From the IMG/VR virus record IMGVR_UViG_3300040971_000117, positions 1 through 34,636 of that record: a DNA stretch of 34,636 bases; one strand, given 5' to 3'. The notes below the pieces were generated by a model that saw only the letters and a list, made by a program, of their open reading frames with translations, did no database searches and was not told where the DNA came from. A program made the position numbers and the translations under genes. Below are positions 5,480 through 32,536 of this stretch, piece by piece (within the stretch, counting starts at the first letter, position 1; every line of letters starts with the position of its first letter). The DNA is from a virus. Lineage: Duplodnaviria > Caudoviricetes.

Positions 5480-5483
5480 ACTC

Positions 5484-6171: not shown

Positions 6172-6172
6172 A

Positions 6173-6682: not shown

Positions 6683-6703
6683 ATTGATCTCCTAACTTGT
6701 GCG

Positions 6704-7120
6704 CTATGCGCGCTTGCGAATAAGATTCCACCGCTGGACGGCCATCGGGCATTTCAGGCCCTCATCAACCGTTCGCGCGATTTCTGAATTAAATTGCACT
6801 TCCCAGACGCTGCTGGTTCCGATGTGCAGTTGTTCCAATAGGGTATGGATGCGCGCCAAGGCAGCATCGATGGCTGTATATCCTGAACGCTGATACAGGT
6901 AGATCACCAGCGGGGTTTGCACCGCCTGGATCTTATTTTGCATGGCCAGCTCGTTACTGCTCTTGAGCAGGGCGCAGGGTTTGATCTCGTTGTTGGCATT
7001 AAAGGCTGCGGGCGCCAACTGACGTGTGATCTCGCCGGTATCATGGATGCCACCGGTCAAGATCGCCACCAGGGTTGCATCGGCTTCCAACAGGGTTTCG
7101 ATTGCGCTGACAATGCTCAT
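6704..7120 (-). CDS. Tail terminator / completion protein
   Basis: 138 aa, LEADATLVAILTGGIH N-terminus typical of this class, immediately upstream of the major tail gene. Confidence 0.65.
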   Translation of the reverse strand: MSIVSAIETLLEADATLVAILTGGIHDTGEITRQLAPAAFNANNEIKPCALLKSSNELAMQNKIQAVQTPLVIYLYQRSGYTAIDAALARIHTLLEQLHIGTSSVWEVQFNSEIARTVDEGLKCPMAVQRWNLIRKRA

Positions 7121-8244: not shown

Positions 8245-9527
8245 TAGATGCTCAACCCTTTCAGCATGCCAGCCAGGCGTTCGCTATCGCCCGATCCAGC
8301 TGCAGCCATTGTGGCCGCGTTTAACTCAATGCCTGGCAGGAAGTAAGCCATGATCGCGCTGATGTCTTCATCACTGACCTGCAACAATTTCAACTTGAGC
8401 AGGGCATCTGCCAGATCACGGATCAATGCAGGCGTCAGGCTGACGCGCGGGCGCCAGATCAAGCTGTACTGTACGCTTTGCGGCAATATGCCTGCCAACA
8501 GCCAGGCCCGTTCGAAAAGCGGCTTCAAAAGCTGATCTGTCAACCATTCCCGGCCCTGCTCCAGGCTTTCGCCATACTGCTCTTTTTGGTCGCCTAAAAT
8601 ATCGCGGTTCAGATCTGCGCCGTAGCCGATCAGACCCAGGGGCACGTCGCTGGCCGTGGCCAGCGTCTCAAGGTGGAATTTGATATCTCCGATCGTATCC
8701 AGGGAAGTGCCTTCACCCTGGATCACATTGATTGATGATTTTTTGTTCGTGAAATAATCAGCCACAGCTGAAAAAGGTGATTCAATCGCTTTTTTATTGG
8801 TGACTTTATAAGCTTCCACATCTGCTGGACTGCCCTCAATCACATGCTGGTATCGAATGCCTGATCGGGTCTTGCGCCGCACGCTGACATCCATTTCGCC
8901 TTCAGATACCCTTCGGTAAGCGCTGGTCCCTGAAGACATCATCGGTTGTCCGTAGCGGCTTTCCTCATCATGATTCCAGCGCAGATGAATGATCTGCCAT
9001 TCGGAAAACCAGGTGGCCTTGGTAGTGTCTTCGCTATATTGGCTGGCATCCAACAGGTAAAAAGCCCGGGCCGGGTTCTCAAACTTATCCACACTGTTTG
9101 AATTGCGCCGCATTTGCAGGGTTGGCTTGCGCGTTATCTCTGCGACTTGCATCACTTCGTTGATGCCCAGCTCGACAAATGAGTCACCATCGCGGGCGGT
9201 CAAACGCACATAATCTTCGCATTTTTGATTAAGACCCAACCGCACTTGCAGGTCGTCGATCACCTGTTTGGCCTGCGCGTTGCTGGTTTTGAGCACAAAT
9301 CCGCCGCGTACCATATCGCGCGCAAGCTGGCGGTGCATCTTCTCAACCCGTGGGTCAACCTTGTACATCTTGCGGCAGGTCTCCACAACTCCCTTACGGT
9401 CCAAATCAGCCCGGAAGCGGTTCAGGTCAGAAGCTGAACTTTGGTCGCGCGTTTCGGTAGTGGTGGTTTTTTCAGGCGCGGCCTGTCTTGTAAAAATGTT
9501 GCTGATCGTGTTCCATAAAGTGGCCAT
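8244..9527 (-). CDS. Portal protein
   Basis: 427 aa; RDGDSFVE, IIHLRW...SRYGQPMM and VPLGLIG motifs; followed by the gpF-like gene. Confidence 0.85.
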   Translation of the reverse strand: MATLWNTISNIFTRQAAPEKTTTTETRDQSSASDLNRFRADLDRKGVVETCRKMYKVDPRVEKMHRQLARDMVRGGFVLKTSNAQAKQVIDDLQVRLGLNQKCEDYVRLTARDGDSFVELGINEVMQVAEITRKPTLQMRRNSNSVDKFENPARAFYLLDASQYSEDTTKATWFSEWQIIHLRWNHDEESRYGQPMMSSGTSAYRRVSEGEMDVSVRRKTRSGIRYQHVIEGSPADVEAYKVTNKKAIESPFSAVADYFTNKKSSINVIQGEGTSLDTIGDIKFHLETLATASDVPLGLIGYGADLNRDILGDQKEQYGESLEQGREWLTDQLLKPLFERAWLLAGILPQSVQYSLIWRPRVSLTPALIRDLADALLKLKLLQVSDEDISAIMAYFLPGIELNAATMAAAGSGDSERLAGMLKGLSI

Positions 9528-9529
9528 AG

Positions 9530-9973
9530 TTACCTTTTGAAAATCCTTTGCGCCAATCGTTCCAGCCGCGGCAGGTTTTTCTCGATGGTGCTCATGATGA
9601 TGGCATATCGCCCGCCGTTTTTGGTCTCAAGAAATTTTCCATAAAAAACAGTGTGTGAAACAACGATGATGAGGATGTCATTGTTGCCTTGCTCAACGCT
9701 GGTATCTTTCATCAATGCTTGAGATGCTGCGCTGACTTCTCCGATCAACGTGCCAAAACCCAATCCATCGACCGCATAAAAAATACCGCTGCGCGCATTG
9801 CCTGTGCGATCTTCCCAGGGTCCTTTTTGGCGGGCATCATCCTGGACATCCTGGCCCCATTTCCCGGCAATCGCATGCAAAGCGACTTTTGCCTTTTCGG
9901 CATAGTCAGCAATCGCATCACCAAGATGCTCAGGAGTTTTGCCAGCCACCCAGGTAAACCCGCTGCCGCTCAT
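9530..9973 (-). CDS. Neck protein (HK97 gp10-like)
   Basis: PWEDRTGNARSGI and YGKFLE motifs. Confidence 0.8.
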   Translation of the reverse strand: MSGSGFTWVAGKTPEHLGDAIADYAEKAKVALHAIAGKWGQDVQDDARQKGPWEDRTGNARSGIFYAVDGLGFGTLIGEVSAASQALMKDTSVEQGNNDILIIVVSHTVFYGKFLETKNGGRYAIIMSTIEKNLPRLERLAQRIFKR

Positions 9974-10272
9974 TGCACAACCTGTATTTCAGCGATGGTG
10001 GCCTGGCTGCGGTTGGGCTGGATAAAGCTGATCTTCCAAAGCAGTCCATCAGCGTTGAAGCGATCTTCAACTGCAATATCGGCATCGATTGCACCCATCA
10101 AGACACCGTCCGCGCGCCGCTCACGGCTGGCATCGCCGCGTATCTGCTGATTCTTGCTCAGCCGCTCGACCCTGAAGTCTTGAGCTGCTAGGCTTGTCTC
10201 ACCACGTCGAATGACGATTGACTGGCTTCTCAAGCTGACAACTTTCGCAAGCGCGCTTTGGATATTCATCAC
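9970..10272 (-). CDS. Head closure / head-tail joining protein
   Basis: 100 aa beta-rich; DIAVEDRF...WKI pattern; position. Confidence 0.6.
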   Translation of the reverse strand: MMNIQSALAKVVSLRSQSIVIRRGETSLAAQDFRVERLSKNQQIRGDASRERRADGVLMGAIDADIAVEDRFNADGLLWKISFIQPNRSQATIAEIQVVQ

Positions 10273-10907
10273 ATCACCAGGACCGTGCCAACATAGATTT
10301 CGACTGCCGCCAAATACTCATTCTTCAGCTCTTGCACGGATTTATTCAGGCCGGCCACATGGCTGCTCAGATCCACAGACACATCACCCTGCTTATAGAC
10401 AAATCCACCTTCGCTGGCTGCCACATTCGAGATCTTGCCGATTGCGATTGCCTGGGCCATCAGCATGATGATCCCTGCCTCTCGCTCTCCCAGATCATCG
10501 TAATATTCGCCATAATCATCCGTAGACAGGGCATACCCGGCCTTATAGCTGATCGTCCGCTGCAGGGTGTAGGTTGGGGTTGGGTAAAAGGTGATCACGC
10601 CGTTGGCAATCGTGGTATCTTCGCAAAAATCCAGGTCGACAGGGATCAGGCCCGAAGATGAGTTGATGATGCAATCCTTGGCATACAGCGCTGCCAGATC
10701 GATCAACTTCAAAAAATCTGCCGGCAGATCGTAGCTTGCGGTACCTGCCACAATACTCAGCGTGGCGATTTTCTTGCGGCCAGCCCGCTCTCCAAAATCG
10801 ATCACGGCCCGTTTGATCGCAGACTCATACTGCGCCTGGGTCGGGACGCCGTCCTGGGCGGGCACATCTTCCTGAAGCTGTTCAACCAAATCATCCAAAC
10901 GTATCAT
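10269..10907 (-). CDS. Head-tail adaptor/connector protein
   Basis: Start moved to MIRLDD (10907); YDLPADF, ITFYPTP, YKAGY and QGDVSV motifs. Confidence 0.65.
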   Translation of the reverse strand: MIRLDDLVEQLQEDVPAQDGVPTQAQYESAIKRAVIDFGERAGRKKIATLSIVAGTASYDLPADFLKLIDLAALYAKDCIINSSSGLIPVDLDFCEDTTIANGVITFYPTPTYTLQRTISYKAGYALSTDDYGEYYDDLGEREAGIIMLMAQAIAIGKISNVAASEGGFVYKQGDVSVDLSSHVAGLNKSVQELKNEYLAAVEIYVGTVLVM

Positions 10908-10914
10908 CGGTTTC

Positions 10915-11466
10915 TCACGATCTTCGCAGCACAACCAGCGTGCCAGCGACGGTATCGATCATCCATTGCGGATGCTGAGCAATAAAATCAGTCACGGCCT
11001 TGCGAATGCTGGGCCAGACTGGGTTGTCAAAATCATGGCAGGCAATCACCTGGGCAGATGGCCCCAGGTGCATCAGATCCGAAAAGATAAACTCATACGA
11101 ATGCCCGCCGTCAATCCATAACAGATCGATCGGTGCAGTCCAACCTTTGGCCAGGGTTCGGCTATCGCCTTCGCGCACATCGATCTGATTGTGCAATTCA
11201 ATTTTGGCAAGGTTGGCAAGCAGCGTTTCGCGGCTGGAAACCATTTCAGGCAAAGGCGACCAACTGAAATCATCAAATACTGTGATCTTGGCGGTCGCTG
11301 CGCCCAGGCCCAATAAGGCAGTTGATCCGCCGTATAAACAACCGACTTCCACCACATGACCATTTTCCGGTACTTCCTTTGCCAGGCTGAAAAGCATTTC
11401 TTTTTCATTTTGCTCAAGCCAGGCCGGGATAACTTCTGCCAAACGAATTGCATCTTTTGCGTTCAT
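10915..11466 (-). CDS. Class I SAM-dependent methyltransferase (Methyltransf_24-like)
   Basis: VVEVGCLYGGST, IDLLWIDGGHSYE and IACHD motifs. Confidence 0.9.
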   Translation of the reverse strand: MNAKDAIRLAEVIPAWLEQNEKEMLFSLAKEVPENGHVVEVGCLYGGSTALLGLGAATAKITVFDDFSWSPLPEMVSSRETLLANLAKIELHNQIDVREGDSRTLAKGWTAPIDLLWIDGGHSYEFIFSDLMHLGPSAQVIACHDFDNPVWPSIRKAVTDFIAQHPQWMIDTVAGTLVVLRRS

Positions 11467-11475
11467 AAATTTCTC

Positions 11476-12066
11476 CTAAAGAAGATTCCAAAGCGCCAGA
11501 TAGCCGTCATTTCCGGGGCCGTCCTGGTAAAAAAATAATGGATCAGGCAGGTTGAATGGGTCTGCCAGTAAGTTGAGCCTGCGCCAGTTGCCATCCTCGA
11601 TGTCTTCGTTGACTTCCTGGTGAGGGTGGGTGGTGGCCAGCAAATACGCAGATTCACTATTCTCAAAGTTATGCAGCGCTTTTTTCACGTTCGCGAATGA
11701 AAGATGGAAAAGAACGGTCCTGCAAATGATTAAGTCAACTTTGGGCAGTGGGGATGATGTAATGTCTGCCACAAAGAACTTGCCCTTGCCCGAATATTTC
11801 TGAGCGTTTTCTGCGATCATCTCAGGAACAATGTCACAGGCGCGCACATCGATCTTTCCCAGATCCAATCGACTCATCCAGTTCCAATCACCGCAGCCGG
11901 CATCCAGCATGCTGTGGATCTGAAGATCGGACAATAGCCTCGGCAGTAAATCGCGGATTTCTACGGTCCGGTCCATTCGCGATCCGCCGCCTGAGACCGA
12001 TTCATCATCGGCCCAGCTGTTCTCTTCGTAGATCTGTGTGAAGCGTTTCTTTAAGTTTTTTTGCAT
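11476..12066 (-). CDS. Class I SAM-dependent methyltransferase (glycan-locus type)
   Basis: SGGGS, MLDAGCGDWNW, DLIICRTVLFHL and WRRLNL...PF motifs. Confidence 0.9.
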   Translation of the reverse strand: MQKNLKKRFTQIYEENSWADDESVSGGGSRMDRTVEIRDLLPRLLSDLQIHSMLDAGCGDWNWMSRLDLGKIDVRACDIVPEMIAENAQKYSGKGKFFVADITSSPLPKVDLIICRTVLFHLSFANVKKALHNFENSESAYLLATTHPHQEVNEDIEDGNWRRLNLLADPFNLPDPLFFYQDGPGNDGYLALWNLL

Positions 12067-12077
12067 AATGATTCCGA

Positions 12078-13865
12078 TCAGGCTACATTCGAGCGCACAT
12101 CTCCGCGCCCGTAATTATGGAAAATCACCACTGTCCGTGACTTGTTGCGGTGCGGATGGTTCCAATCGATTGCCAGGCGCTTTACCTGCAATTCAGGCAC
12201 CTGGTAGATTGCCCTGGTCAGCGCAAGCTGCTCATCCCACTGCGAAAAACGTGGCCATTCTGCCTGCCAGCGCTTGAAAACTTCTTCAGCCGCGGCTGAC
12301 TTCCTGAAGAACAAAACGCCGCTGTTCAAGAATTTCTCATCATGACCGATTGCCTGCAGGGTGTAGTCACGCTCCTCGATGTTGACTTCCCACCCGGCTA
12401 GCGGTTTGTTATACAGCTTACTGATCGGGTTCATCTCTTCAGCGATCGCAATATCGTGCTGATCCAGCATCAGGAAGCCAGGGGTGATATCGCGCATGAA
12501 TTCCGTATCCGCATCGATGTAAAGGCTGTAATCGTAGGGAGAATAATCATATAAAAATGGCTTAACTCGACCGGCGCGAAACTGGAAGTTTTTCTTCTGG
12601 TCCGCATCGAATGGAGATTGTCCATTCCACTCGATAAAGTCTGCATTCCTGACCTTTGAGCTCCCAACCACAGTCACCGGAATTTGAAATCCCAACCGGC
12701 GCAGGGTTCGCACGCTGGCCTCTACACCGAGCGCCGCTTTTTCTCCAAAAGCCATGTAAATGATCCCGATCGATTTGCCATTGATATGCGTGAAAGGTTC
12801 TCCAGATCTGGCATAGTCGCTCAACTTCGGCAGCGGTTTTGCAGACAAGAAACTATCGATCGCGTTCACTGCGGTTTGCGCGGCATTGCCTCGCACTGGG
12901 TATGCAGCCTCGACCGCCATAATCCGTTTCTGCTGTTGATCCGGCGTATTTTGCAGGGCCTTATCGACTGCCTGCACCAGGTGCGCAGCATCGTCACAGT
13001 TGACGCCTACATCAGCATGTTCCCAAAATCTCAGCCCGAAACGCACGCTGCGCCGGTAGATCGGAGCGTTCAAGACCACCACCGGTTTCCCAAGGCTGGC
13101 AAACTCATACAGCGTGGACGATGCATCGTTGACATAAACATCTGCTTGATCCATCACCTGCTCGAAATCATCCACCATCTCGATCCCCATCCGCTTGAAA
13201 ATCGGTCGCATTTCTGCAATGTTGCGCGGATGGCCATGCCCGATCACCTTGTACTTTTTTGCCAGGATCGGCAGCGCAGACTGAAACCATGGAAATGCAG
13301 ATCGCGTTTCAAGCGCCACTCTGCAATCCCAGTGGAATGAAACCGCGATCACCGGGTTTTCAGGGCATTGCCATTCTTTCACCAGCTGGTGACGTTTGTC
13401 CAGCTTTGGGCAGCCGATCACCACGTTTGGGATATCCGGATAGGCTCGAATATTGGCGCCAGAAACATACTCGTTTGGGTTCAAGAACAGATCAACGTGC
13501 TTGCGCTCTCCGTTTCCGCCAGAATAACTGGGATGCCCATTCCGAAAGGTAAACCCTGCGCCATGTTCCATAAACATCTTGATCCGCCGCGGTTGTTTCA
13601 ACGTTCGTTCAGCGGTCAGCACATCAGTTAAGTCACCATAGGCAGCCGTCACAATTGGATTGCCATTCCCAGGGAAGTCATAAATCTCATTCGCGGTGCG
13701 AGGTATATCCACGATATCTGCGCCAAATTCGCGCCCGGCGCAATCCCGGTACAACTCTTCAGATACATAAAACTCACCCTGCCGCTCTCCCAATTGTTTC
13801 CAGATTGGCAGCATGTGCTCCAGAAAATGAATGCGTTTGGCGAAAAAATCAACTTTGTAGGTCAT
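12078..13865 (-). CDS. Two-domain glycosyltransferase: N-terminal TagB/TagF-like (GT-B) plus C-terminal GT-A (GT8-like)
   Basis: EHG, GCPKLD, HPR and ADVYVNDASSTLYEFASLGKPVV; then YIDADT (DxD), NSGVLFF, DEQLAL and FHNYG. Confidence 0.85.
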   Translation of the reverse strand: MTYKVDFFAKRIHFLEHMLPIWKQLGERQGEFYVSEELYRDCAGREFGADIVDIPRTANEIYDFPGNGNPIVTAAYGDLTDVLTAERTLKQPRRIKMFMEHGAGFTFRNGHPSYSGGNGERKHVDLFLNPNEYVSGANIRAYPDIPNVVIGCPKLDKRHQLVKEWQCPENPVIAVSFHWDCRVALETRSAFPWFQSALPILAKKYKVIGHGHPRNIAEMRPIFKRMGIEMVDDFEQVMDQADVYVNDASSTLYEFASLGKPVVVLNAPIYRRSVRFGLRFWEHADVGVNCDDAAHLVQAVDKALQNTPDQQQKRIMAVEAAYPVRGNAAQTAVNAIDSFLSAKPLPKLSDYARSGEPFTHINGKSIGIIYMAFGEKAALGVEASVRTLRRLGFQIPVTVVGSSKVRNADFIEWNGQSPFDADQKKNFQFRAGRVKPFLYDYSPYDYSLYIDADTEFMRDITPGFLMLDQHDIAIAEEMNPISKLYNKPLAGWEVNIEERDYTLQAIGHDEKFLNSGVLFFRKSAAAEEVFKRWQAEWPRFSQWDEQLALTRAIYQVPELQVKRLAIDWNHPHRNKSRTVVIFHNYGRGDVRSNVA

Positions 13866-13877
13866 AATTTTCTCTTT

Positions 13878-13907
13878 GGCCGGGGAGCTTCGTGGAGCTC
13901 CCCGGCC
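13878..13907. terminator. GC-rich hairpin after the capsid gene (mRNA stabiliser or attenuator)
   Basis: GGCCGGGGAGCT-6nt-AGCTCCCCGGCC perfect 12-bp stem; no U-tract on the coding strand. Confidence 0.6.
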
Positions 13908-13923
13908 TTCGGGAGAAGGAATA

Positions 13924-16545
13924 CTACGAGCCAGCCTCGTCGATCACGATGTAAGAGCCCTTTTCAGCCACAGGAGCTTCAGTGGCGTTGTACTCTTCGG
14001 TGTAATACTGATCAGCCGCGATCAGCTTGCCGTCCGTGTGATAGGTCGGGAAGGGTCCCTTGACGATCATCGGCTGGAAGATGCGGTGCATCACCAGTTG
14101 GCGGTTGCCAACAAGGATCGTATCTTCAGCAAATTCGGTGCTGGCAAAGATCGGCAGGCTCTTAACGCTGCCAGCAAAACCGGCAGCATTCAGCACCGCA
14201 TTCGGCCAGCCATCGCGCTTGAAACCTTCCCAGTTGCTCAGAGTTTCGGCATTGGCAGCGCTCGCCAGGATGAAATCGGGCGAGTAATAGCGATCGTAAA
14301 CCTTGATCTTGGCCAGGCCGATCAGGCGCACCAGTTCAGCCAGTTCGGCTTGGGTCGTGCCACGCGTCCAGGTGCCGCCGCTGTTGCCGCTGACTGTTTT
14401 GACCGCCGAATAGGCCTGATACAGCATGCCCTGGTCGATCTTGATCCGCGTTTGGCGGATCAGGCTGGTCAGCGTGCGCTGCACAAGATCCATGCCCAAC
14501 TGCGAGCGCGAGAAAACGATCGCTTCACTGCTGATTTGGTCTGCCAGGCGATCAGCCGCGGCTGAAATATCCTTGTAGGCCAGGGTGATCTTGCCGCGCT
14601 CGATGGGCTGCATTTCGCCCTTGCGGATCGCGGTGTAGTTGTAGGTGATCAGCAGAGCCTGGTTATCGGTGATTGTGGTCAGTGCCATGAATTTGCCATT
14701 GGCATAATCGATGACGTAGTCAGTGCCTTCGACATAGGTCACGTTTTCGGCTTCATTGGTGACAACCACACTTCCCGGGGTTAGGCGTTTCTGTGCCAGG
14801 GAAACCCATACGCTCAGGTCAGCCACCAGGGCCGCCCCCGTTACCGTGCCAGCATAGCCAGTTTCACCAGCAAAGGTTTCATAGAACAGGCGCTCAGGCG
14901 AGTTGTTCATTAGGCCGATATCAAAGATGCCAGCGCTGACCAGGGTCGGGAACACTTCTTCGATGATGGTGCGCGAGACGCTGTACGGCAGGTTCAGATC
15001 GGACGTAATGCTGGCTTCCTGCCACTGACGTGCTTCGGCGATCAGGCGGTCTTTGTGCAGCTCATCAAAACGTTTCAAAATCTGGATGGTAAGGTAGTCA
15101 GCAGCGGTCACTGGCTTGCGCAGATCGCGCCGCTCGCGCATTTGGCTCACGCTCAGCGACTCATTCAGTTCAAACGAGACACGCGCAAATTCGGGCGTGC
15201 CAGTCTGGGACTCGAGCACCGGCGAGATGCCAGAGATCGAGCCGCTCCAGCCCATTGCTTCGAGCTTGCGACCGGCAAACAGCTTGTCATATTCGGCCCG
15301 CTTGGCTTCCACCAGGCTATTGACCGCGGCAGCATCCTGCGGCTTGGCGGCTTTGATCGATTCCACGAAAGACTTGTTGCCCTCAACACCGTAGGGCAGT
15401 TCTTTCGTGGCTTCAGCGATCGCAGACTCGATCGATTGCAGGCGCTGGCCTTCTTCGAACTTGCGCGAGTTTTCGATCATAACTTTCAGCGACTCATTGA
15501 CATCCACTTTGGCCGGGTCAATTTTCATTGCTTCGCTGATTTTTCCCCACAGGGTTTGCAGTTGGGGTTCGGCCATAACCTTGAGCTGGTCAGCCGAAAC
15601 ATTGAACAAATCGGGGCGCGCTTCGAGCAACGCCATAAGTTTTTCCAACAGGTTCATTCTGATATCCTCCGCGCCAGGTTCTTCGGCCTGGGCACTTTCT
15701 AAAATGGTTTGTGAGTTTCCAAAACTGGCTTCAGTGACCACGTCAATGCCGGTGATGTGCAGTTCGTTAACTTCTTCGAACTTGTTGCCATTATCCGTCA
15801 CAGTCTCAGTCGATCCGTAGCCGCGAATACTCCCACCAGGTACAACGCCGATCGCCGCGAGCGCCTGGATGTGCCTGCCGCCTTCGGTTTCAGTTGCCAG
15901 CAAACCTGATACGTTGACATCCCTGCCGTCAAACGTCACATCAGTCCACCGGATAACCGTCTCCATCAGGTTGGCACGCCGCGCGCCTTTGTCACTTGGA
16001 TGTTCTACCTCGCCGAGTAGCATCAAACGTCCCTGGCCAGCGCTTTCGTGCAGGTGGGTTTTCAGTTCTTCCACCGCAGCCTGTAAAACGCTTGCCGGGT
16101 AACGCCTGTTGTTGCCGTTGATTTCGCCAGCCGTCATCAGGTTCTTGATGTGGATCTTGCGCGCGCCTTTTGCGCTTTCTTCCAACATCCAAACCGATTC
16201 CGTAAGGCTTTTGGGCTTGTAGGTCAGCTCGACCACCTGCCACTGATCACGCGCATCGAACATGATTCCTTCGTTCGATTGCGCGAAATTGACCTTGAAA
16301 TATTCATCTTCGTTGAGCGGTATGCTCACCGCTTGGGTGGCTGTCCAGTCCCGGATTTTGACCATCACATGATCTGGGAAGATTTCCGCCAGGTCATAGT
16401 AAACATGGTCTGTATCGGGGAATTGCCGCCCAAAGGCCTGCCGGATTTCATAGCGCTCATAATCGAGCGAGCCCTTTACCAGCTCCTCGAGCCGTTTGCC
16501 CTTGTTCTTGCTTTCCTGCAAAAGAATAAGTGTCTTGCCCATCAT
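13924..16545 (-). CDS. Fused prohead protease (T4 gp21/U9-like) - scaffold - major capsid protein
   Basis: NGNNRRYP, LGEVEHP, GGSIRGYGS and GIDVVTEAS protease motifs; coiled-coil middle; capsid-like C-terminal half; GGAGG RBS; no other capsid candidate in the head module. Confidence 0.85.
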   Translation of the reverse strand: MMGKTLILLQESKNKGKRLEELVKGSLDYERYEIRQAFGRQFPDTDHVYYDLAEIFPDHVMVKIRDWTATQAVSIPLNEDEYFKVNFAQSNEGIMFDARDQWQVVELTYKPKSLTESVWMLEESAKGARKIHIKNLMTAGEINGNNRRYPASVLQAAVEELKTHLHESAGQGRLMLLGEVEHPSDKGARRANLMETVIRWTDVTFDGRDVNVSGLLATETEGGRHIQALAAIGVVPGGSIRGYGSTETVTDNGNKFEEVNELHITGIDVVTEASFGNSQTILESAQAEEPGAEDIRMNLLEKLMALLEARPDLFNVSADQLKVMAEPQLQTLWGKISEAMKIDPAKVDVNESLKVMIENSRKFEEGQRLQSIESAIAEATKELPYGVEGNKSFVESIKAAKPQDAAAVNSLVEAKRAEYDKLFAGRKLEAMGWSGSISGISPVLESQTGTPEFARVSFELNESLSVSQMRERRDLRKPVTAADYLTIQILKRFDELHKDRLIAEARQWQEASITSDLNLPYSVSRTIIEEVFPTLVSAGIFDIGLMNNSPERLFYETFAGETGYAGTVTGAALVADLSVWVSLAQKRLTPGSVVVTNEAENVTYVEGTDYVIDYANGKFMALTTITDNQALLITYNYTAIRKGEMQPIERGKITLAYKDISAAADRLADQISSEAIVFSRSQLGMDLVQRTLTSLIRQTRIKIDQGMLYQAYSAVKTVSGNSGGTWTRGTTQAELAELVRLIGLAKIKVYDRYYSPDFILASAANAETLSNWEGFKRDGWPNAVLNAAGFAGSVKSLPIFASTEFAEDTILVGNRQLVMHRIFQPMIVKGPFPTYHTDGKLIAADQYYTEEYNATEAPVAEKGSYIVIDEAGS

Positions 16546-18806: not shown

Positions 18807-19151
18807 CTACTCGCTTTTCAAAAACTCGATCATGCGGTTGATCACTGATTGACGCCCATCCATAAATCCGCGGTTGTAATCGTTCGTGTCGCTGGGTGGC
18901 GCTCCGTTATTGCTGACATTACATAGATAGGTACCGGTGGGCAGGCGCACACAAATGTATGCATCCTGATCCCGCTTTTGTGGGTGGATAATCTTGGCCC
19001 ATTGTTCGGTTGTTTTCTGGCCTGGGTCATCCAGCAGACGAATAACTTCAAATTCCTGACCATTCTTGGCGTCATCAAGTACAGCAGCACCGGCATTTGG
19101 CCCGCGCCTGATTTTTACAATTGGTTTGCTTACGGTCAGCATCAGAGTCAT
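18807..19151 (-). CDS. Bacterial SH3-like domain protein
   Basis: VKIRRGPNAGAAVL...G..FEV...WAKI...AYI resembles SH3b. Confidence 0.6.
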   Translation of the reverse strand: MTLMLTVSKPIVKIRRGPNAGAAVLDDAKNGQEFEVIRLLDDPGQKTTEQWAKIIHPQKRDQDAYICVRLPTGTYLCNVSNNGAPPSDTNDYNRGFMDGRQSVINRMIEFLKSE

Positions 19152-19588
19152 TGTTGTGTCTCCGTGAAAGATTTTGTTCGACGCTTGGGGGCAGCCGGTC
19201 GATCAGCTGATCCATTAGACGCCCGCACGAATGTGTCATGATTGTTGATGGATACGGTCAGATCATTGATCTGTTCAACCAGTTTTGTAAGCACGGCGCT
19301 ATTGCGCTGGTCGTTGGTTATCCACTGCTCTTGCATATTCCTGAGAAATAATTGCCACTGTTGGTCTCGCTGCTTGGCTTGTTCTGCTTCCCAAACGCGC
19401 TGTTTATCACGCTCAATCTCACGTTTGGAATCTTGCTGCTCGCGCTCTGCTGCCCGAAAGGCCTCTTGTTTTTCCTGCCATCCGAGCAAATCTTTCCAAA
19501 ATTTGTAGAGCGCGCCAGCAATCAAAACTGTTGACAGGATCAGTACGGCAACGATTTGGAACTGCAACCAGACATCACTCGACGGCAT
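19148..19588 (-). CDS. Single-TM coiled-coil protein (holin/lysis-associated?)
   Basis: N-terminal hydrophobic helix followed by a Gln/Glu-rich coiled coil. Confidence 0.5.
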   Translation of the reverse strand: MPSSDVWLQFQIVAVLILSTVLIAGALYKFWKDLLGWQEKQEAFRAAEREQQDSKREIERDKQRVWEAEQAKQRDQQWQLFLRNMQEQWITNDQRNSAVLTKLVEQINDLTVSINNHDTFVRASNGSADRPAAPKRRTKSFTETQQ

Positions 19589-19594
19589 GGCGGG

Positions 19595-20005
19595 CTACCC
19601 GTTAAGTAGTTTGTTCTCAATGCGTTCGATAACCTGCTTTGAGAGCGCGTTGTAGATGATAGTGGCGCTGCCGGTCATGGCCAGGGCATACGGACCCATC
19701 TCGGCGAATAAAACGGCCAGTTGTTGTGTATAAGCTGCCGGGTCGCCAGTCCAAACCGGGAAACCGGCTGCCGGTGGGTTGGCTGCCAGTGCAATGGCAA
19801 AAGCCGCTGCATAAACCAGCATGGTCACCCAGCCGCGCCCCACAGGCTTGCCCTGGGCCTTGTAGACCAGGTTGATCATGGCCACGATCACCACTGCCAC
19901 GATGCTGATCAGCGCCGCGTTTGGGTCGCTGACCGTCAGCACCCCGGTCGCTGTAAGAATCAGTGCAATTTGTTTCCAATCAAACTTCTTCAAAAACTTA
20001 GCCAT
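19595..20005 (-). CDS. Multi-TM holin-like protein
   Basis: Start at MAKFLKK (20005) after a GGAGG RBS; about 4 hydrophobic segments; first gene of the late operon. Confidence 0.6.
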   Translation of the reverse strand: MAKFLKKFDWKQIALILTATGVLTVSDPNAALISIVAVVIVAMINLVYKAQGKPVGRGWVTMLVYAAAFAIALAANPPAAGFPVWTGDPAAYTQQLAVLFAEMGPYALAMTGSATIIYNALSKQVIERIENKLLNG

Positions 20006-20029
20006 CACTACCTCCATTTGACTTAAACG

Positions 20030-20057
20030 AAAAACCCGGCACCAAATCGGTGCCGGG
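20030..20057 (-). terminator. Intrinsic terminator in the late leader
   Basis: CCCGGCACC-GATTT-GGTGCCGGG followed by TTTTTCGTTT on the minus strand. Confidence 0.75.
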
Positions 20058-20120
20058 CGCTCAACCTCCGGGCGGTGGCCAATGCTCTTCAATCGGCCTG
20101 CTCAATTACTTACAAATTAA

Positions 20121-22830: not shown

Positions 22831-23084
22831 AATTCCGCCTTTTCCACATCTACCAGGACCGGGAAAGATGCCGGCAGCTTGCCATTCCAACAATGCTGAA
22901 GAATGCTCATGGCCAGCTCACGCGCGGAAACTTTACCCATCGGCACATTTCGCTTTCCACGATGTTTTATAAAACCGCTCAGAATGCTTTCGGTCAGACC
23001 ATCTACAAAAAGCTGGCCTTCTTCATTGAGCTCTTCGTAAAGAATTTCACGTTTATCAGTAATGCTCCAAACGCCGCTTTTCAT
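22827..23084 (-). CDS. Hypothetical phage protein
   Basis: Coupled to both neighbours; GGAG RBS. Confidence 0.6.
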   Translation of the reverse strand: MKSGVWSITDKREILYEELNEEGQLFVDGLTESILSGFIKHRGKRNVPMGKVSARELAMSILQHCWNGKLPASFPVLVDVEKAEL

Positions 23085-23947
23085 AATTGATCTCCATAAA
23101 GTTTCTTTGCATTCATCAGCCAGTTGCCGCCTGTTTTGGGCGGTACGCCGTAAGTTTCACAAACTTGCTCAGCGCTCTCGAAAGTTGACACAACTTTCTT
23201 CTCACTTTCAGGAAGTTTCCGCCAGTCGTGCCACTTTCCGAAAGTTTCAGGAACTTTCGCGGCAGGCTCAGAAACTTTCGGGTAACTTTCTTCCAGTTTT
23301 TTGGAACTTTCTGAAAGTTTCCTTGATTTTTCTTCCAATTTTTTCAGCTTAATTTGCTGATCCATGCGTAACTTTTCTTCCTGAATTCTTTGCTCAAAAT
23401 CAAGTTGTTGCTGCTCGCGCTCGATCTGCAAATTCCAGACACGTTCACGTTCTTCTTCGTCAAGCCGTTTTTGTTCTTTTTGAGCTTCAAAAGTCTCTGC
23501 CACAGCCTGTGCAATCGCTTGGCGTTTCTTGGTCAGTTGGTTGCGCAGGGCCACCATCAACCCGCCCAACAAGCCAAAGGAAGACATCAAACCCATAGTC
23601 ACCTTTTGCGTAATATTGCCGTCATCCAGGATCGCATTCACAGAAACCACTACAACCAGGTAAACCACCGCCCCGCCCAGACTTACCCAGAACTGCGCAG
23701 GCATTCCGGGCTTTGGCTCTTGGTTTCGCAGGGCCGCCTTGATATCTTCCTGGTGCGCTTCCCAGATGTCGAGCGTCGTGGTGATCGTTACAAACCCGAT
23801 TCCCTCCACTACCACGCCGATCAGCCCGGCTTCAACCAGTCCAAACTGGGGCAGGTTCTTTTGCACGTTGCGGAAAGTCATCACCGCAGGCACCAACCCG
23901 CCCGCCCAGGGCATCGTTCCAGCGACTAAATCAACATAATTTGGCAT
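23081..23947 (-). CDS. Membrane protein: 3-4 TM, coiled coil, C-terminal HTH (Spd/DUF2637-like architecture)
   Basis: Hydrophobic helices in the N-terminal half, E/Q/K-rich coil, SAEQVCETYGVPPKTGGNW HTH-like end. Confidence 0.7.
   Translation of the reverse strand: MPNYVDLVAGTMPWAGGLVPAVMTFRNVQKNLPQFGLVEAGLIGVVVEGIGFVTITTTLDIWEAHQEDIKAALRNQEPKPGMPAQFWVSLGGAVVYLVVVVSVNAILDDGNITQKVTMGLMSSFGLLGGLMVALRNQLTKKRQAIAQAVAETFEAQKEQKRLDEEERERVWNLQIEREQQQLDFEQRIQEEKLRMDQQIKLKKLEEKSRKLSESSKKLEESYPKVSEPAAKVPETFGKWHDWRKLPESEKKVVSTFESAEQVCETYGVPPKTGGNWLMNAKKLYGDQL
23180..23319. repeat. Intragenic AACTTTC/GAAAGTT array in both orientations
   Basis: Exact copies at 23180, 23192, 23240, 23252, 23273, 23284, 23305 and 23313, plus variants. 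Confidence 0.85.
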
Positions 23948-25303
23948 CTATGCCTCCATATCCTGCTGAAAACCGTCCGAACCGCCCAGGGCGTCCGAAC
24001 CCGTCCGAACCGCGTCCGAACCGCCTGAATCCGTCCGAACCGCGTCCGAACCGCTCAGATCAGCCAGGCAAAGCGCATTGTCACGGTCCGGGCGCACAAC
24101 TGCCAATCCTCGAAAATGCCAATCCTCGCGTATTCGCCTCGCAGACCGCTCAGGCATTCCATAAGCCTGCAATGCAGTAATGGTCATCTTCCCGTCATAG
24201 TTCGCTCGCAGATAATCTGCGAGGCGTTGCTCGGCTTCGGTCAATCCATTCGCGCTTCCAGAAGCGATCAATCCTTTCGGTACAAAATAAACCTGCATTG
24301 TTCCCCACCGGTTAGACATTACCCGCCCCTGATGATCCAGCAATTCAGCTCCGGACCGGCCCAGGATCATCCTGGATGTTTGCGCATTCGCCACGCGAAA
24401 ACAGATCCGCGTCATCATCTGTTCGCGCACTGGCCCCACAATATCCTTGCTAAAATCTTGCCCGGCCAGCACGATCCAGATCCCGAATTTTGCCGCACCC
24501 CAAACCAGCCTGGTGGCAGCTTTGGCAAACGATCCATTCGCGCCACCCAGACTCATCACTGTGCCGTTGAACTCGTCCAGGACAACAAGCACTGGTTTCA
24601 GTTTGGTTTCTGCCGTCTCGTTATATTCATCCAGCGTATCCGGAGAACCTTCAACCTGGTCAAACATCCGTGACCGTTCATTGACCAGCTCCTGCAGTTG
24701 TCCCAGGGCATGATTGCACTGGTCAAGCGTGCGCGCCACTGGGAAGACCAGTGCTGGGTCGCCTGCAAACTTGCCGAATGTGCGCCCGTCTGGGTCGCAT
24801 AGAGCCAATTGCCAGCTCTCAGCCCGGGCCTGTTCAACCATCAGGCGCAGGAAGTTGCTTTTTCCGTAGCGAGTGATACCAGCCACTAGGGTATGCCCGA
24901 TCTCATTCCATGGCATTTCTACAACCTGACCGCGGCCATTGACGCCCAGCTGCAAAACGCCTTTTTTCCAGCCCCCGAAGCTGACCATGTCGGGCCATTT
25001 TGGCTTTTCGCTCAGCAGGATGCCGTAGCGCAAGCCAGTGTGGTTCGAAAGGATGACAGGCATCCCGCGCAGGCTCGATGACAAGCGGTGCGCAACCGCT
25101 TCATACGGTTCGAACCGTGGCATTCGCTGGTCATCCAGCACCGCAAACAACCAGATCGATCCCCGGCTGGTGCGTGTCATCACCCACCGGCTGACCATCG
25201 TCGCATCCGTTCCGTGATTGGAGTTCAGGACCGTCTTCACGATCTTCAAAACGTGCATCGCCTTGTCTTCGTAGTGCTTTTTCCAATCCAGTTGAATCTG
25301 CAT
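23948..25303 (-). CDS. FtsK/SpoIIIE/TraB-family ATPase with C-terminal winged helix
   Basis: HTLVAGITRYGKS Walker A, CDPDG, ERSRMF, VLVVLDEF Walker B, GIWIVLAGQ, RICFRV, GAELL and GR motifs; wHTH-like tail. Confidence 0.92.
   Translation of the reverse strand: MQIQLDWKKHYEDKAMHVLKIVKTVLNSNHGTDATMVSRWVMTRTSRGSIWLFAVLDDQRMPRFEPYEAVAHRLSSSLRGMPVILSNHTGLRYGILLSEKPKWPDMVSFGGWKKGVLQLGVNGRGQVVEMPWNEIGHTLVAGITRYGKSNFLRLMVEQARAESWQLALCDPDGRTFGKFAGDPALVFPVARTLDQCNHALGQLQELVNERSRMFDQVEGSPDTLDEYNETAETKLKPVLVVLDEFNGTVMSLGGANGSFAKAATRLVWGAAKFGIWIVLAGQDFSKDIVGPVREQMMTRICFRVANAQTSRMILGRSGAELLDHQGRVMSNRWGTMQVYFVPKGLIASGSANGLTEAEQRLADYLRANYDGKMTITALQAYGMPERSARRIREDWHFRGLAVVRPDRDNALCLADLSGSDAVRTDSGGSDAVRTGSDALGGSDGFQQDMEA
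23974..24052. repeat. Six direct repeats of CGTCCGAACC at the 3' end of the FtsK-like gene
   Basis: Copies at 23974, 23992, 24002, 24013, 24032 and 24043. Confidence 0.95.
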
Positions 25304-25305
25304 GG

Positions 25306-26262
25306 TTACACCTGCCCTTCTACGTCATCCACCCAACCCTGAATGACCTGCTCGTCCACAACCTCGATTTGCGACTGATCCTGACCGCCATCAAAACTAC
25401 TGGCAATATCCAGCGCCTGGCGCTGATAGCCTGGTGGAAGTTGACCAATCGCCTGCACTGCCTGCGAACGCCGTGTAACATCGGTCTGATCGGGATCTTT
25501 CACGATCGCGCCATCTACTTCGAGCAGTGGTGCAGGCATCAGGTCCGGACGAAATACCCGCATCAGATCTGTAAAAATCAAAACTGGCAAATTTCCGTTT
25601 TCATCTGGTGCCACAATTCCGATCTTGGATTTCTTCCACATGTAATAGATGCCTGCGCCCAAAGCAGAGAAGATCAGGATGAGTGGAGCTGCTGCCCAAA
25701 AATCATTGGTGTTGCGCTCTCGGGTAGCTGACAGCTCCGCCGATTCTGCCTGCGCAGATACCGCAGTCCATTTTGCTTCCAGAAACGGAGCAGATGCTGT
25801 TTCAGTGGCCGCAATCTCAGTGCCTCGCGCCTGCACTGTGGCCGTGCCGTTCATATAAGCGATCTGGGTGCTAGTGCCTGCCGCCGCGGCTGTGCTGGTC
25901 GCCTGATCATTCCCAGCCTTGGCTGTGGCTGTGCCCTGCACCTGAGCAGCCTGCGCGGTCGATGTGCCCTGAGCCTCGCCAGCGGCAACCGTCACGCGCC
26001 AAACTGTTCTTGTTTCGCCCGCAGCCAATTCTGTGGCCGTAGCGCCGGTGATCAACGCCGTGGCCGTCTGCCCGGCCTGGAACATGATCAGCATCTGGTC
26101 AGCCGCCCGTTCTGTGGCGCGCGCTTCTACCTCGCCCTGCAAAATCTGCATTAGCACAGCATCATCTGATGTGGGCGTAGGTGTTATGGTCGGAATCGGG
26201 TCCGTATAGGAGCAAGCGGTCAAGACCAACATTATCAATAGGGTTGCAATCGTCTTTTTCAT
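25306..26262 (-). CDS. Lipoprotein with Ala/Thr-rich stalk and a second TM segment
   Basis: MKK-hydrophobic-LTAC lipobox; TPTPT and ATATA-like tracts; TM FWAAAPLILIFSALGAGIYYMW. Confidence 0.75.
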   Translation of the reverse strand: MKKTIATLLIMLVLTACSYTDPIPTITPTPTSDDAVLMQILQGEVEARATERAADQMLIMFQAGQTATALITGATATELAAGETRTVWRVTVAAGEAQGTSTAQAAQVQGTATAKAGNDQATSTAAAAGTSTQIAYMNGTATVQARGTEIAATETASAPFLEAKWTAVSAQAESAELSATRERNTNDFWAAAPLILIFSALGAGIYYMWKKSKIGIVAPDENGNLPVLIFTDLMRVFRPDLMPAPLLEVDGAIVKDPDQTDVTRRSQAVQAIGQLPPGYQRQALDIASSFDGGQDQSQIEVVDEQVIQGWVDDVEGQV

Positions 26263-26265
26263 GGT

Positions 26266-26700
26266 TTATTTCCAAATCCGCGGTTGATCCGCATTCTTTT
26301 GTGGAGGTCGCACAACCCGCACATCGTTCTTACCGTTTTGCATCATCATAAATTTCAGAATGTCATTTGTTGTTAAGCCGCGTTCGCGTGGTTCTTTTGG
26401 TTGCCACTGTGCATTTGGGCCAGATCTCCATGCGCGCTTGTTGAACCGCATCTTCGAGCGGAGGAAGGCAACCGCCAGACCAGCCACACCCACGATCACC
26501 ACGCCGATCGCAGTCTTCAGCAGCCACCCCCCCAGCTGACCGGCCAAGGCCTCGACGAATGGCATTTGCGCAGCGGCAGTGCTGGCCTGCACCTGGGCCG
26601 TGGCCATCTCAACTTGTTGAGCCTGCAGCACCGACATCGCAATGCCCAGCGCTACCAAAATCATGATCAAGATCAATCCGTTTCCCATTCCAGTTTTCAT
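26266..26700 (-). CDS. Two-TM membrane protein
   Basis: Two hydrophobic segments and a basic C-terminal tail; GAGGA RBS. Confidence 0.7.
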   Translation of the reverse strand: MKTGMGNGLILIMILVALGIAMSVLQAQQVEMATAQVQASTAAAQMPFVEALAGQLGGWLLKTAIGVVIVGVAGLAVAFLRSKMRFNKRAWRSGPNAQWQPKEPRERGLTTNDILKFMMMQNGKNDVRVVRPPQKNADQPRIWK

Positions 26701-26717: not shown

Positions 26718-27008
26718 AGTGAAGGTTAACCTTCACTAGTGAAGGTTGCAGGTTTTTCAACCTTCACTATATGGTTTGCGCCTTCTTATTTTTTGCTACA
26801 CACACACTACTTACAGGATAGGTACATTCACAACCTTCACTTTTGGCCGTTTTTGGCTGTTTTTGGGCTCTTTTTTCCTGTCTTTTGCCATGTTTTGGGC
26901 TGGTGAAGATCTCCAGTGAAAGAGTGAAGGTTGAATCACCCCGCAAGCGGGATGAAAAATATTTTTTAATTACCGGTTTCTGGGTCATTAGACTTTCACT
27001 CCTTCACT
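26718..27008. repeat. Iteron-like array, putative replication origin
   Basis: AGTGAAGGTT or its reverse complement at 26718, 26728, 26738, 26759, 26832 and 26923, plus partial copies, flanking T-rich tracts, right after the helicase gene. Confidence 0.8.
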
Positions 27009-30313: not shown

Positions 30314-31192
30314 CTAATACTTCTTTGCCAACTCTTCGAGCTCTGCCTTGTAGGCCAGTTCCTGCGCTTCGATCTTGTCCCAGGTTTCCCAATCGATCAG
30401 ATCGTTGATCTGCTCACGTACCAGGTCAGCCAGAGTAGCAGGCTCTACGGCATCCAATTCCCAGGATGACTCGCCGAATTCGGCCGCGTAGGCTTCGAAA
30501 CGTGAATCACTCTCTTTGGCCGGGTTCTCTGGTGGCCTCCACATCTCGACCTGGTCATAGTTCAGCGCCAGGCGATGCACTTCGAAGTCGAAGCCGCCAT
30601 AAGTGAACTGCTCGAAGCGCTCACGAATATCGCGTGTCATATCGATACCGGATGGGTCATGGTCGCCTAGATATATGATGTGGATCTGTCGACCGTAGCT
30701 TTCCTGGCGAGCAATGCGCTTGGCAGCCGTGTACATTGCGCTGCTGGATGTGTAGCCCTTATTGGCCGTGAATTTGACATCCAAGTCTTGGCACACCGGC
30801 AAAATAATGCCGCTCAGAGCGTCTTTCTCGACGAAGACCTCGACATAGTGCTCTTGACCTACCCAGCGATCCATCCCGAAGGAATAAGCTGCGCTGCGCA
30901 GGATCTCGCGCGGACTGTCCCAGTGCGGGTTGGAATGGGTCTCACGACCACGATCCTCGATCATGCTCCAATCGAGCAGCCCTGCCAGGCGCGCATTGCT
31001 GACGAGATCTCCTGTGCGCTTATAGCTTTTGATGCTGTTTTCGATGTAGTCACGAGCAACGAGCTGGTAGTAGAGCTGGCGCAGGGAAAGCTTGTATCCC
31101 TGGCTTTCGTACTCATTCAAGATGCCGCTGCAGGTTTGGATCAGTTCCAAACTTGTCTTGCTAAACTTGTGATCAACAAACTTTTCTTTCAT
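30314..31192 (-). CDS. Topo VI-A/Spo11/JetD-like Toprim-domain protein
   Basis: LSLRQLYYQLV winged-helix tyrosine motif, VEKDAL, KGYTS, YLGDHDPSG and WELDA. Confidence 0.82.
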   Translation of the reverse strand: MKEKFVDHKFSKTSLELIQTCSGILNEYESQGYKLSLRQLYYQLVARDYIENSIKSYKRTGDLVSNARLAGLLDWSMIEDRGRETHSNPHWDSPREILRSAAYSFGMDRWVGQEHYVEVFVEKDALSGIILPVCQDLDVKFTANKGYTSSSAMYTAAKRIARQESYGRQIHIIYLGDHDPSGIDMTRDIRERFEQFTYGGFDFEVHRLALNYDQVEMWRPPENPAKESDSRFEAYAAEFGESSWELDAVEPATLADLVREQINDLIDWETWDKIEAQELAYKAELEELAKKY

Positions 31193-32397
31193 GACTTTTC
31201 TCCTCGGTCATACAGGGGCAGAATCGCCTGCACATCACCGTTTGAATAGGTTTGCGGAATAAGTATGGTTGCATCTGGGTCATCATCGCTCCATCGTTGC
31301 GGATAGGTTCGGAGCGCGATTAGTTCACGGATGCGGGCCTGCTCGACTGCATTGATAAGGTCAATCTGTGGACGGCCTAAAGCGTCAGCGGATTGATTTA
31401 TTTCGGACTGGACTTTCAAAACTTCACCAAGTGCCCATTCACGCGCGGCCAAAGTAAGCGGGCCTTTGCGGCTTGGATTGCTGGAAAATTCGCCGTTGCC
31501 ATTTCTCTCACCATCCTTTTGCTTTCGGTGGCGGAAACTGCGCAACTCGGTATAGAGCGGGCGCAATCGCTTCAACGGTTGCAGGTATCCCCATTCCTGG
31601 ATGGATAAAACATGGTCGAGAGCAGCGTCTTTTGTGGCAAGCGGGCAACCAATGCAACCGGTTCGGGCGTTGATTTCCTGCGCTTCATCTCCGCCATAAA
31701 CCTGAGCGACAAAGGAAACTGACGGTGCAATAGATGGGGCTTCGAACATCAACCAATCCCAAATGTGACAAACGCGCCAGTGGAGCAGGGGAGCGAGCGT
31801 ATCGGCTACGCTGGCCGGGGTTGTCTCCTGAAACCAACCCTGACCACACTCTGCGCCGTTCTTTCCACAAGATAGTGCAATGCGAGCGTCACGAACGGCA
31901 CTTTCACCAATGCGCACGCCCGTAAGCATCAAGAACTTTTCGCCGTGTTCGTCTCTCAACTGGCGCAAGGCATCAACCATTGGCTCAACCTTCAGCTGTG
32001 GGGTACACCAGCGCAGGGTATTGTTATTTGGCGGCGGCACGCCCCTTCCAAGCATATAAACAAAATATCGGTCATCCATTTTGGGTTGCACAATCTTGGC
32101 TGCATAACCACGATGACGAATAGTTTCGAGCGTTTTCATTGCACCGATTTGCAAGGGTGGGATTTCCTGGCGTGTGTCGCTGTACAAAACCGTGAGAGAT
32201 TCGGGCCGTGATATTTTGCCGTTATCAATCAGCCACAAAACAACGGTCAGCAATGCCGAAGAGTCTTTTCCTCCACTATAGGCAATCGCCCAATGCCTGT
32301 ACTCACTTGCGTAAGCTGTTAGGGATTGCGCAGTGAGTTCAAGACTATCTTGCAGACTTGTGCGCTGGTTCTCAAAAAGACTTTGCTGCCTATTCAT
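31189..32397 (-). CDS. PAPS-reductase-family protein, DndC-like
   Basis: AYSGGKDS PP-loop, SDTRQE, GRGVPPP...RWCTPQLKVEP, GVRIGES..R and RTGCIGC; start MNRQQ after a GAGGTG RBS. Confidence 0.88.
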   Translation of the reverse strand: MNRQQSLFENQRTSLQDSLELTAQSLTAYASEYRHWAIAYSGGKDSSALLTVVLWLIDNGKISRPESLTVLYSDTRQEIPPLQIGAMKTLETIRHRGYAAKIVQPKMDDRYFVYMLGRGVPPPNNNTLRWCTPQLKVEPMVDALRQLRDEHGEKFLMLTGVRIGESAVRDARIALSCGKNGAECGQGWFQETTPASVADTLAPLLHWRVCHIWDWLMFEAPSIAPSVSFVAQVYGGDEAQEINARTGCIGCPLATKDAALDHVLSIQEWGYLQPLKRLRPLYTELRSFRHRKQKDGERNGNGEFSSNPSRKGPLTLAAREWALGEVLKVQSEINQSADALGRPQIDLINAVEQARIRELIALRTYPQRWSDDDPDATILIPQTYSNGDVQAILPLYDRGEKS

Positions 32398-32401
32398 ACA
32401 A

Positions 32402-32536
32402 TCACCTCGCCACCAACGCCAGGACAATGCCCAGCCAACCCGCTATCGAAACCACGAGGGCGACCCTAGATGAAATGTTGAGCAACCTGGATGGTTTTAC
32501 ATTCTGCATAAGGTGCTGATTACGCATTTTAGACAT
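32402..32536 (-). CDS. 44-aa single-TM peptide (MSKMRNQ...VVSIAGWLGIVLALVAR)
   Basis: My translation; TGATG overlap with the upstream ORF and a GAGG RBS. Confidence 0.55.
   Translation of the reverse strand: MSKMRNQHLMQNVKPSRLLNISSRVALVVSIAGWLGIVLALVAR

Follow-up and report, generated by a model that had tools for sequence, protein, structure and literature searches.

We analysed the IMG/VR virus record IMGVR_UViG_3300040971_000117 (Caudoviricetes) over its full 34,636 nt, called the window below, with a focus on four tightly packed genes that encode a small membrane protein, a lipoprotein, an FtsK-like ATPase and a further membrane protein. The record is the whole virus sequence, classed as linear with a completeness of ~80%, and belongs to a tailed, temperate phage. 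Its gene order on the minus strand is integrase, primase and helicase-like gene, four-gene module, terminase, capsid/protease, neck, portal-like and tail genes; the large terminase subunit (TerL), portal-like protein, capsid/protease, tail and integrase are all encoded on the same record as the module. The four module open reading frames (ORFs) lie on the minus strand and are spaced by 0–3 nt. Two runs of one sample, the possible source, each contain a 9.2-kb contig that spans the module without a break and with 0 differences. This packing had been claimed in an earlier note on this DNA, made from its letters alone, as had the two repeat arrays, which are present at 23975–24051 and 23152–23323 (Table 1). 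The first three genes belong to a conserved unit, consisting of a small membrane protein, a lipoprotein, an ATPase free of transmembrane (TM) segments, and 8-bp repeats at the 3' end of the ATPase gene.

Table 1 Module features and nearby repeats in the window
Feature	Position	Strand	Remarks
Small membrane protein with two TM segments, 144 aa, encoded first in the conserved core	26266–26700	−	Hydrophobic segments at 1 and 56
Lipoprotein anchor, 318 aa: lipobox Cys17, Ala/Thr/Gln-rich helical stalk, TM 187–205, cytoplasmic domain	25306–26262	−
Lipoprotein docking motif, residues 297–318, conserved Trp310	25309–25374	−	Predicted binding partner: ATPase alpha domain
Soluble FtsK/TcpA-like ATPase, 451 aa: alpha domain 1–100, RecA-type beta domain, winged helix 356–413	23948–25303	−	PF01580
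Array 1: six direct 8-bp repeats GTCCGAAC	23975–24051	.	Starts 14 nt behind the winged-helix codons
Fourth-slot protein, 288 aa: 3–4 TM, charged helical middle, possible C-terminal DNA-binding domain	23081–23947	−
Array 2: near-palindromic GAAA(G/C)TTTC repeats inside the fourth gene	23152–23323	.
Possible origin: six AACCTTCAC/GTGAAGGTT repeats, 9-bp inverted/direct	26719–26932	.	Behind replication genes, outside the module proper

Motor, anchor and repeat array

The AlphaFold model of the ATPase (pLDDT, the per-residue confidence, 90) matches FtsK 6t8b (Z 28.9, root-mean-square deviation (rmsd) 6.2, 329 residues) and TcpA 6o1x (Z 28.6, rmsd 5.3, 322 residues) over both alpha and beta domains, with the N-terminal domain aligning as the FtsK alpha domain and not as the HAS barrel of HerA. 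The match to EccC starts only at residue 104 (Z 26.4, 242 residues), and HerA proteins reach Z 15–20 over ~215 residues, compared with 28–29 for FtsK and TcpA. The earlier note had named a grouping with EccC or HerA as grounds for giving up its reading; the fold is instead that of the FtsK/TcpA alpha and beta domains, EccC and HerA matching the beta domain. EccC is the best sequence match by summed score in the PDB and NCBIfam, at 28–45 bits versus family cut-offs of 347–778, and the window protein has one ATPase domain, not the tandem domains of EccC/EssC. No TM segment was found in the ATPase. The N-terminal 4-TM domain of chromosomal FtsK is missing, and in the tree the protein falls outside the clade of host FtsK. 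Both Walker motifs, A and B, are intact and invariant in 54 aligned relatives, and Lys272, beside the arginine-finger position, is also invariant. The C-terminal tail folds as a winged helix, and family members match MarR/IclR/HTH (helix-turn-helix) profiles. An FtsK-family ATPase with a winged-helix tail, as first proposed from the letters alone, is thus borne out by PF01580, motor fold and tail. A comparison of this tail with FtsK gamma did not establish homology: hhalign gave E 0.046 against a gamma profile into which wrong ORFs had strayed, no better than the value for GntR (0.014), and the PDB match had E 0.88. A role in DNA packaging, which the earlier note had thought unnecessary, is ruled out by TerL in the phage and by the module's occurrence in elements without virion genes.

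The lipobox cysteine of the anchor, Cys17, is invariant in all 27 aligned anchor rows, and the stretch from it to the TM segment has a median of 170 residues (range 128–225) rich in Ala, Thr and Gln. The anchor model is helical over residues 33–213 at low confidence (pLDDT 67, predicted TM-score (pTM) 0.29). Six anchor–ATPase fusions of 574–684 aa, running on into the FtsK domain, were found among the best 150 anchor-profile matches. The last 20 anchor residues form a motif that is kept in split forms and missing from these six fusions, which also lack the alpha domain. Structure prediction with a partner, as the earlier note had suggested, gave a score of 0.69 for a complex of ATPase 1–415 and anchor 208–318, versus 0.00 for the best of three controls; the mark for this score is reached by 116 of 157 solved pairs and 2 of 215 mismatched pairs. 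The predicted interface places anchor residues 297–318 on ATPase residues 39–53 and 82–101, in the alpha domain, and the runs agree in at least 78% of contacts. The anchor's own fold in this model is uncertain, because partner pLDDT is at least 49. The lipoprotein is accordingly only predicted to dock on the soluble motor through its C-terminal motif, with support from the complex model. Shorter two-TM anchor variants without the long stalk (open frames of ~210–310 aa; L233, L236, L237, L239, L243, L245) still stand directly upstream of an FtsK ATPase.

The array 1 word GTCCGAAC has 6 exact copies at 23975–24051 and 0 elsewhere in the 34,636 nt. A first scan for such arrays took the best of ~12 windows against single background windows, which favoured a signal, and was replaced by a fixed 130-nt window anchored behind the winged helix, with counts scored against the own locus. 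In this anchored test p ≤ 0.05 was reached in 15 of 35 clusters and p ≤ 0.1 in 21 of 35, compared with 0 of 32 at the 5' end of the gene. Repeat words vary between elements, occur in either orientation and extend past the stop codon in several, so the arrays are DNA-level features and a protein-level origin of array 1 is ruled out. Array 1 is likely a clt-like cis loading site, judged by its sequence and position: it lies at the 3' end of the ATPase gene, where the array of the TraB plasmid pJV1 sits (10 copies at the traB stop in the same test), in line with the parallel to clt repeats drawn in the earlier note.

Conservation, phylogeny and carriers

Three collection scans yielded 56 family loci, the window among them, which fall into 38 clusters at 90% identity; L091, of another family, was dropped. 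The anchor stands directly upstream of the ATPase in 34 of the 35 clusters with room for it. The small TM gene was detected by hidden Markov model (HMM) in 22 of 29 clusters with room, and six of the seven others have a small 2–4-TM gene at the same place. In the reverse search with the anchor alone, an FtsK ATPase was adjacent or fused in 32 of 36 loci (one a partial match). The anchor profile matches 600 cluster representatives. Named relatives are Chloroflexota, nearly all Anaerolineae, which agrees with the affiliation given in the earlier note, and the anchor occurs in 26 of 401 Anaerolineae genomes versus 6 among 401 genomes sampled across the phylum as a whole, with the seed genome counted in both. 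Matches in the ESM Atlas, all under 0.9, fall in mostly Chloroflexota or viral clusters and serve as leads only. Anaerolineae grow as multicellular filaments, and the phage host is likely a filament-forming member of the Chloroflexota.

In a beta-domain tree of 96 rows, with the window ATPase represented by L002 after dereplication at 75%, the 27 family rows group together in a single clade (100/97), to which neither host FtsK nor TraB nor Tcp belongs. The set of family rows excludes L084, L091 and truncated ATPases, and pZL12 gp71 was not captured by the profile. A joint clade with Streptomyces TraB, whose rows are long branches, is absent from the best tree and is not rejected by the approximately unbiased (AU) test (p-AU 0.38); a joint clade with the fused forms is likewise not rejected. 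The phylogeny that the earlier note had called for therefore sets the family apart from host FtsK but does not group it with TraB in the best tree. FtsK-like genes of phages Phoebus and Moonbeam are placed outside the family clade.

Virion genes are present in all 18 IMG/VR records with the family ATPase, partly by selection, these records being drawn from a viral collection. Eleven match PF03237, and in the seven others several mutually unrelated kinds of terminase, portal, capsid or tail families were recognised. The ATPase is the sole protein family common to the 18 compared phage records (the window and 17 others), followed by the anchor (14/18 by BLAST clustering), with integrase (11/18) and terminase behind. 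A VirB4/TraG-type ATPase (PF19044) was matched in 0 of 19 phage records and in 7 of 14 controls. The PF13814 relaxase likewise had 0 matches in the 19 phage records, in a search that matched no control either. No relaxase or VirB4-type gene was recognised among the window proteins, and the absence of relaxase and VirB genes claimed from the window's letters stands to this extent.

The core was also found in host contigs, inside small integrated Anaerolineae elements (11–13 kb) without recognised virion genes. L108 (7380–20249) measures 12.85 kb between 16-bp direct repeats and L084 (8000–18900) ~11 kb, and both carry the core with ParM, an integrase, a primase/helicase and a PF13814 protein. 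Integrase, replication and FtsK functions define the integrative and conjugative elements of actinomycetes (AICEs) (PMC3218068; this and the other sources are cited for the available parts of their text). L108 and L084 fit this recipe because they combine the core with an integrase and a primase/helicase.

Four further arrangements were seen in single loci or pairs. The phage at L158 (record G013), which already has a split module, encodes at 6446–7918 a second, membrane-anchored FtsK ATPase of 490 aa that has its own repeat run at the stop, stands beside a ParB-like gene and groups with the fused forms. L114 has two divergent module copies back to back (1983–8133 and 8638–14935), each followed by ParA. 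DUF2637 membrane proteins are encoded just upstream of the module in two phages (L012:2175–3125, L015:4477–5466). In phage Cr-LKS4 of Cylindrospermopsis, a filamentous cyanobacterium, the FtsK gene stands behind several small genes (L254:4050–6128).

The fourth gene and the rest of the record

The earlier note had treated the four genes as one unit whose synteny should be checked in relatives. The fourth gene stands beside the ATPase in only 4 of 31 clusters, which rules out a conserved four-gene unit and leaves three genes and one array as the core. The fourth protein has 45 homologs besides itself. Its description as a multi-TM, coiled-coil HTH protein held for the 3–4 TM segments and charged helical middle, whereas its HTH had no match among Pfam, PHROG or NCBIfam families. 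The near-palindrome GRAASTTYC has 10 matches in the genome, 6 of them starting within 23211–23313, and like repeats occur in the homologous fourth genes of L001, L002 and L005. In several other loci a ParM-like (actin-like) or ParA protein is encoded in the fourth slot, next to or flanking the putative pump. Because ParM and ParA often occupy this slot, the fourth gene likely encodes an add-on for stability or partition, distinct from the core and tethered to the membrane, that would bind its own palindromes. A likely analogy is SpdA2/sps of pIJ101, with palindromic repeats inside its own gene, which is described in the available text as affecting segregational stability and not transfer (PMC4170104); unlike SpdA2, the window's fourth protein is a membrane protein.

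A putative origin had been placed beside the module in the earlier note. A repeat cluster does exist there, but it consists of only the six 9-bp repeats of Table 1. Beyond the module, small membrane genes lie ahead of the terminase (19148–20092), and the portal-like gene (8244–9527) is placed behind the neck genes and not beside the terminase. In the late operon, the interval that separates the capsid gene from the head-tail adaptor (10915–13865) holds one glycosyltransferase-like and two methyltransferase genes, which possibly serve virion modification. Adjoining the integrase, a PAPS-reductase/DndC-like gene and a phrog_6247 gene (30314–32427) are a possible DNA modification pair. No endolysin was recognised in the window, nor among 30 scanned proteins of the complete relative G002.

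A putative split DNA pump and competing explanations

We read the three-gene core, at slightly better than even confidence, as a split TraB/clt-type pump for double-stranded DNA (dsDNA) that would allow spread without virions. This reading is favoured by the alpha and beta motor fold, the co-conservation of the anchor, the fusions, the predicted dock, the 3' arrays, the capsid-free elements, the Anaerolineae bias and the lack of matches to a VirB4/TraG ATPase. The phage genome would be excised as a circle, and the winged helix of the motor, presumably a hexamer, would load on the 8-bp repeats that the motor gene itself contains (array 1). The lipoprotein would hold the soluble motor ring at the membrane through the predicted dock, and its ~25-nm stalk (170 residues at 1.5 Å each) would, with the small TM protein, form or recruit a passage or cell–cell bridge. 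The circular genome could then be pushed without a virion into an adjoining cell, either the next cell of the filament, through the septum, or a cell of another filament. A wider proposal is tentative and, as a whole, rather doubtful: that filamentous Chloroflexota evolved a relaxase-free dsDNA conjugation of their own, with a lipid-anchored ring of ~25-nm helices spanning the wall that separates two cells and a detachable motor plugged in by a 20-residue peptide, that it defines an overlooked AICE-like class among small integrative elements, and that tailed phages of many unrelated kinds have taken it up and so colonise entire filaments without virions.

The nearest described relatives in function are the TraB/clt/Spd systems of Streptomyces (PMC4447253, PMC2440964, PMC3218068). 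Like TraB of pSVH1, pIJ101, pSG5, pJV1 and pSAM2, the family has an FtsK-type motor with a C-terminal winged helix and no type IV system. It shares with them 8–9-bp direct repeats at the 3' end of the gene (pJV1), small membrane genes alongside, and occurrence on small integrative elements as well. The TraB anchor is part of the same chain, whereas the family motor lacks a TM segment, its predicted holder being a separate, long-stalked lipoprotein; in our reading the peptide dock may stand in for TraB's covalent membrane link. The family further differs in forming its own clade, in belonging to Chloroflexota and not Actinomycetota, and in that no GntR-type kor gene was seen. Our best reading is that the module works like TraB/clt, membership in TraB being weaker than the likeness.

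Other known systems are less close. TcpA of the Clostridium perfringens plasmid pCW3 is an equal-best fold match over alpha and beta domains, but it has N-terminal TM segments, and its partners are a relaxase and a type IV system (tcpM, tcpD/E), neither of which was seen in the phages. Chromosomal FtsK/SpoIIIE shares the motor fold and a winged helix in the gamma position and differs by its 4-TM domain and separate clade. Bacillus Bastille-like, mycobacteriophage Omega-like and Cylindrospermopsis phages also encode an FtsK ATPase despite having their own terminase; their genes have 23–30% identity over part of the protein and no array at the stop.

The claim that no such system had been described in a tailed phage does not hold. 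The Streptomyces plasmid-phages pZL12 (phage ZL12) and pFP4, tailed, terminase-encoding temperate phages, are precedents, which according to the available text both conjugate as episomal DNA and make virions (PMC4170104, PMC3583192). ZL12 gp71, annotated as FtsK/SpoIIIE-like, lies four genes from the terminase. ZL12, a plasmid prophage of 90 kb with a Tra that itself carries TM segments, differs from the window phage of ~35–40 kb with an integrase; it matches the family profile marginally (E 0.006) and the anchor not at all. A virion-encoding phage with a TraB-type pump is therefore known; what would be new is the Chloroflexota family, its split architecture built on a stalked lipoprotein and a docking peptide, and the AICE-like carriers. 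A literature search, with most subscription papers outside its reach, found no paper on a Chloroflexota module, the split build or AICE-like carriers.

Several observations weigh against a transfer pump. The phage host and its filament habit are themselves conclusions from relatives. An array at p ≤ 0.1 is absent in 14 of 35 clusters, and among TraB plasmids in the same test pSG5 gave a weak signal and pIJ101 none. TraB recognises its repeats through helix 3 of the winged helix (PMC3583192), and here the repeat word suggestively tracks this helix, with a partial r = 0.50 for hand-picked words and a weak r = 0.25 (p = 0.02, the peak among 22 segments) for the fairer machine-picked words. The canonical arginine finger, Arg in FtsK, TcpA and the TraB proteins of pIJ101 and pSG5, is Ala271 here and Arg in just 32 of 76 pattern-matched homologs, with a few of these matches possibly off-site. 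The motor could for this reason be slow or run in another way; Lys272 may replace the finger. The fused forms are not the simple sum of anchor and ATPase genes, because the alpha domain is missing. The two-TM protein and the stalked lipoprotein of the earlier note were both confirmed and are co-conserved with the ATPase, but the Spd kinship it had implied was not recovered, as three partner profiles had no match to three Spd proteins. Spd proteins are considered too diverse for missing similarity to exclude analogy (PMC4447253). The L084 ATPase has one in-frame stop, and L084, L108 and L116 encode a PF13814 relaxase-like protein; the capsid-free elements could instead be satellites or relaxase-mobilised.

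Among the competing explanations, segregation within the cell is the strongest, although we consider it unlikely. The motor would clear the episomal phage or element into the daughter cells at the closing septum, as FtsK/SpoIIIE do for chromosomes, with no entry into cells free of the phage or element. Such a device would share the fold and the need for a membrane anchor and oriented repeats, and the module is placed among replication and partition genes; Spd-like self-binding proteins can moreover be stability functions (PMC4170104). However, the elements are integrative, and a second segregation device would be redundant because many of them already carry ParM or ParA beside the pump. An extracytoplasmic, lipid-anchored stalk of 170 residues would seem unneeded before septum closure, and segregation would leave the capsid-free elements without visible horizontal spread.

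The module could also be a passenger that came from small integrative elements, works there, and is weakened or idle in the window phage. The replaced arginine finger in the window's subclade and the broken L084 ATPase would suit this, as would virion genes complete enough for the normal route. We regard it as improbable given that the ATPase and, in second place, the anchor are more widely shared among the phage records than integrase and terminase, that Walker A/B and Lys272 are invariant, and that the array is kept.

Improbable to a similar degree, and slightly more so, is a TcpA-like coupling protein that passes relaxase-processed DNA to the conjugation system of another element. TcpA ties with FtsK as best fold match and three capsid-free elements have a PF13814 protein, but the phage records gave no PF13814 match (with the limit on that search given above) and no VirB4-type ATPase, and the pairing of a winged helix with a neighbouring repeat array agrees with direct loading of DNA. 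Some other task in the phage cycle, be it DNA uptake at infection, a superinfection block, for which the frequent exclusion of superinfection by temperate-phage lipoproteins would speak, or EccC-like protein secretion, suggested by the top sequence match, has the least credit, since the EccC match is limited to the beta domain and far below the family cut-offs and the module is present in elements without virion genes.

If the split pump is real, TraB-type dsDNA transfer would not be confined to actinomycetes and would occur in a second multicellular bacterial lineage, on phages and on small integrative elements. The capsid-free elements of the L108/L084 type would then be an AICE-like class worth separate study. 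Motor, anchor and cis site are separable in the split build and open to separate purification and mutation, which would make it tractable for asking how an FtsK-like ring moves DNA across two envelopes; a docking peptide and an 8-bp word have been identified for such work. To our knowledge Anaerolineae are a class with almost no genetics, and the module could supply a native transfer tool for them. These bacteria are common in digesters, sediments and hydrocarbon sites, and their temperate phages could spread by an additional route, one that avoids both receptors and the defences directed at virions.

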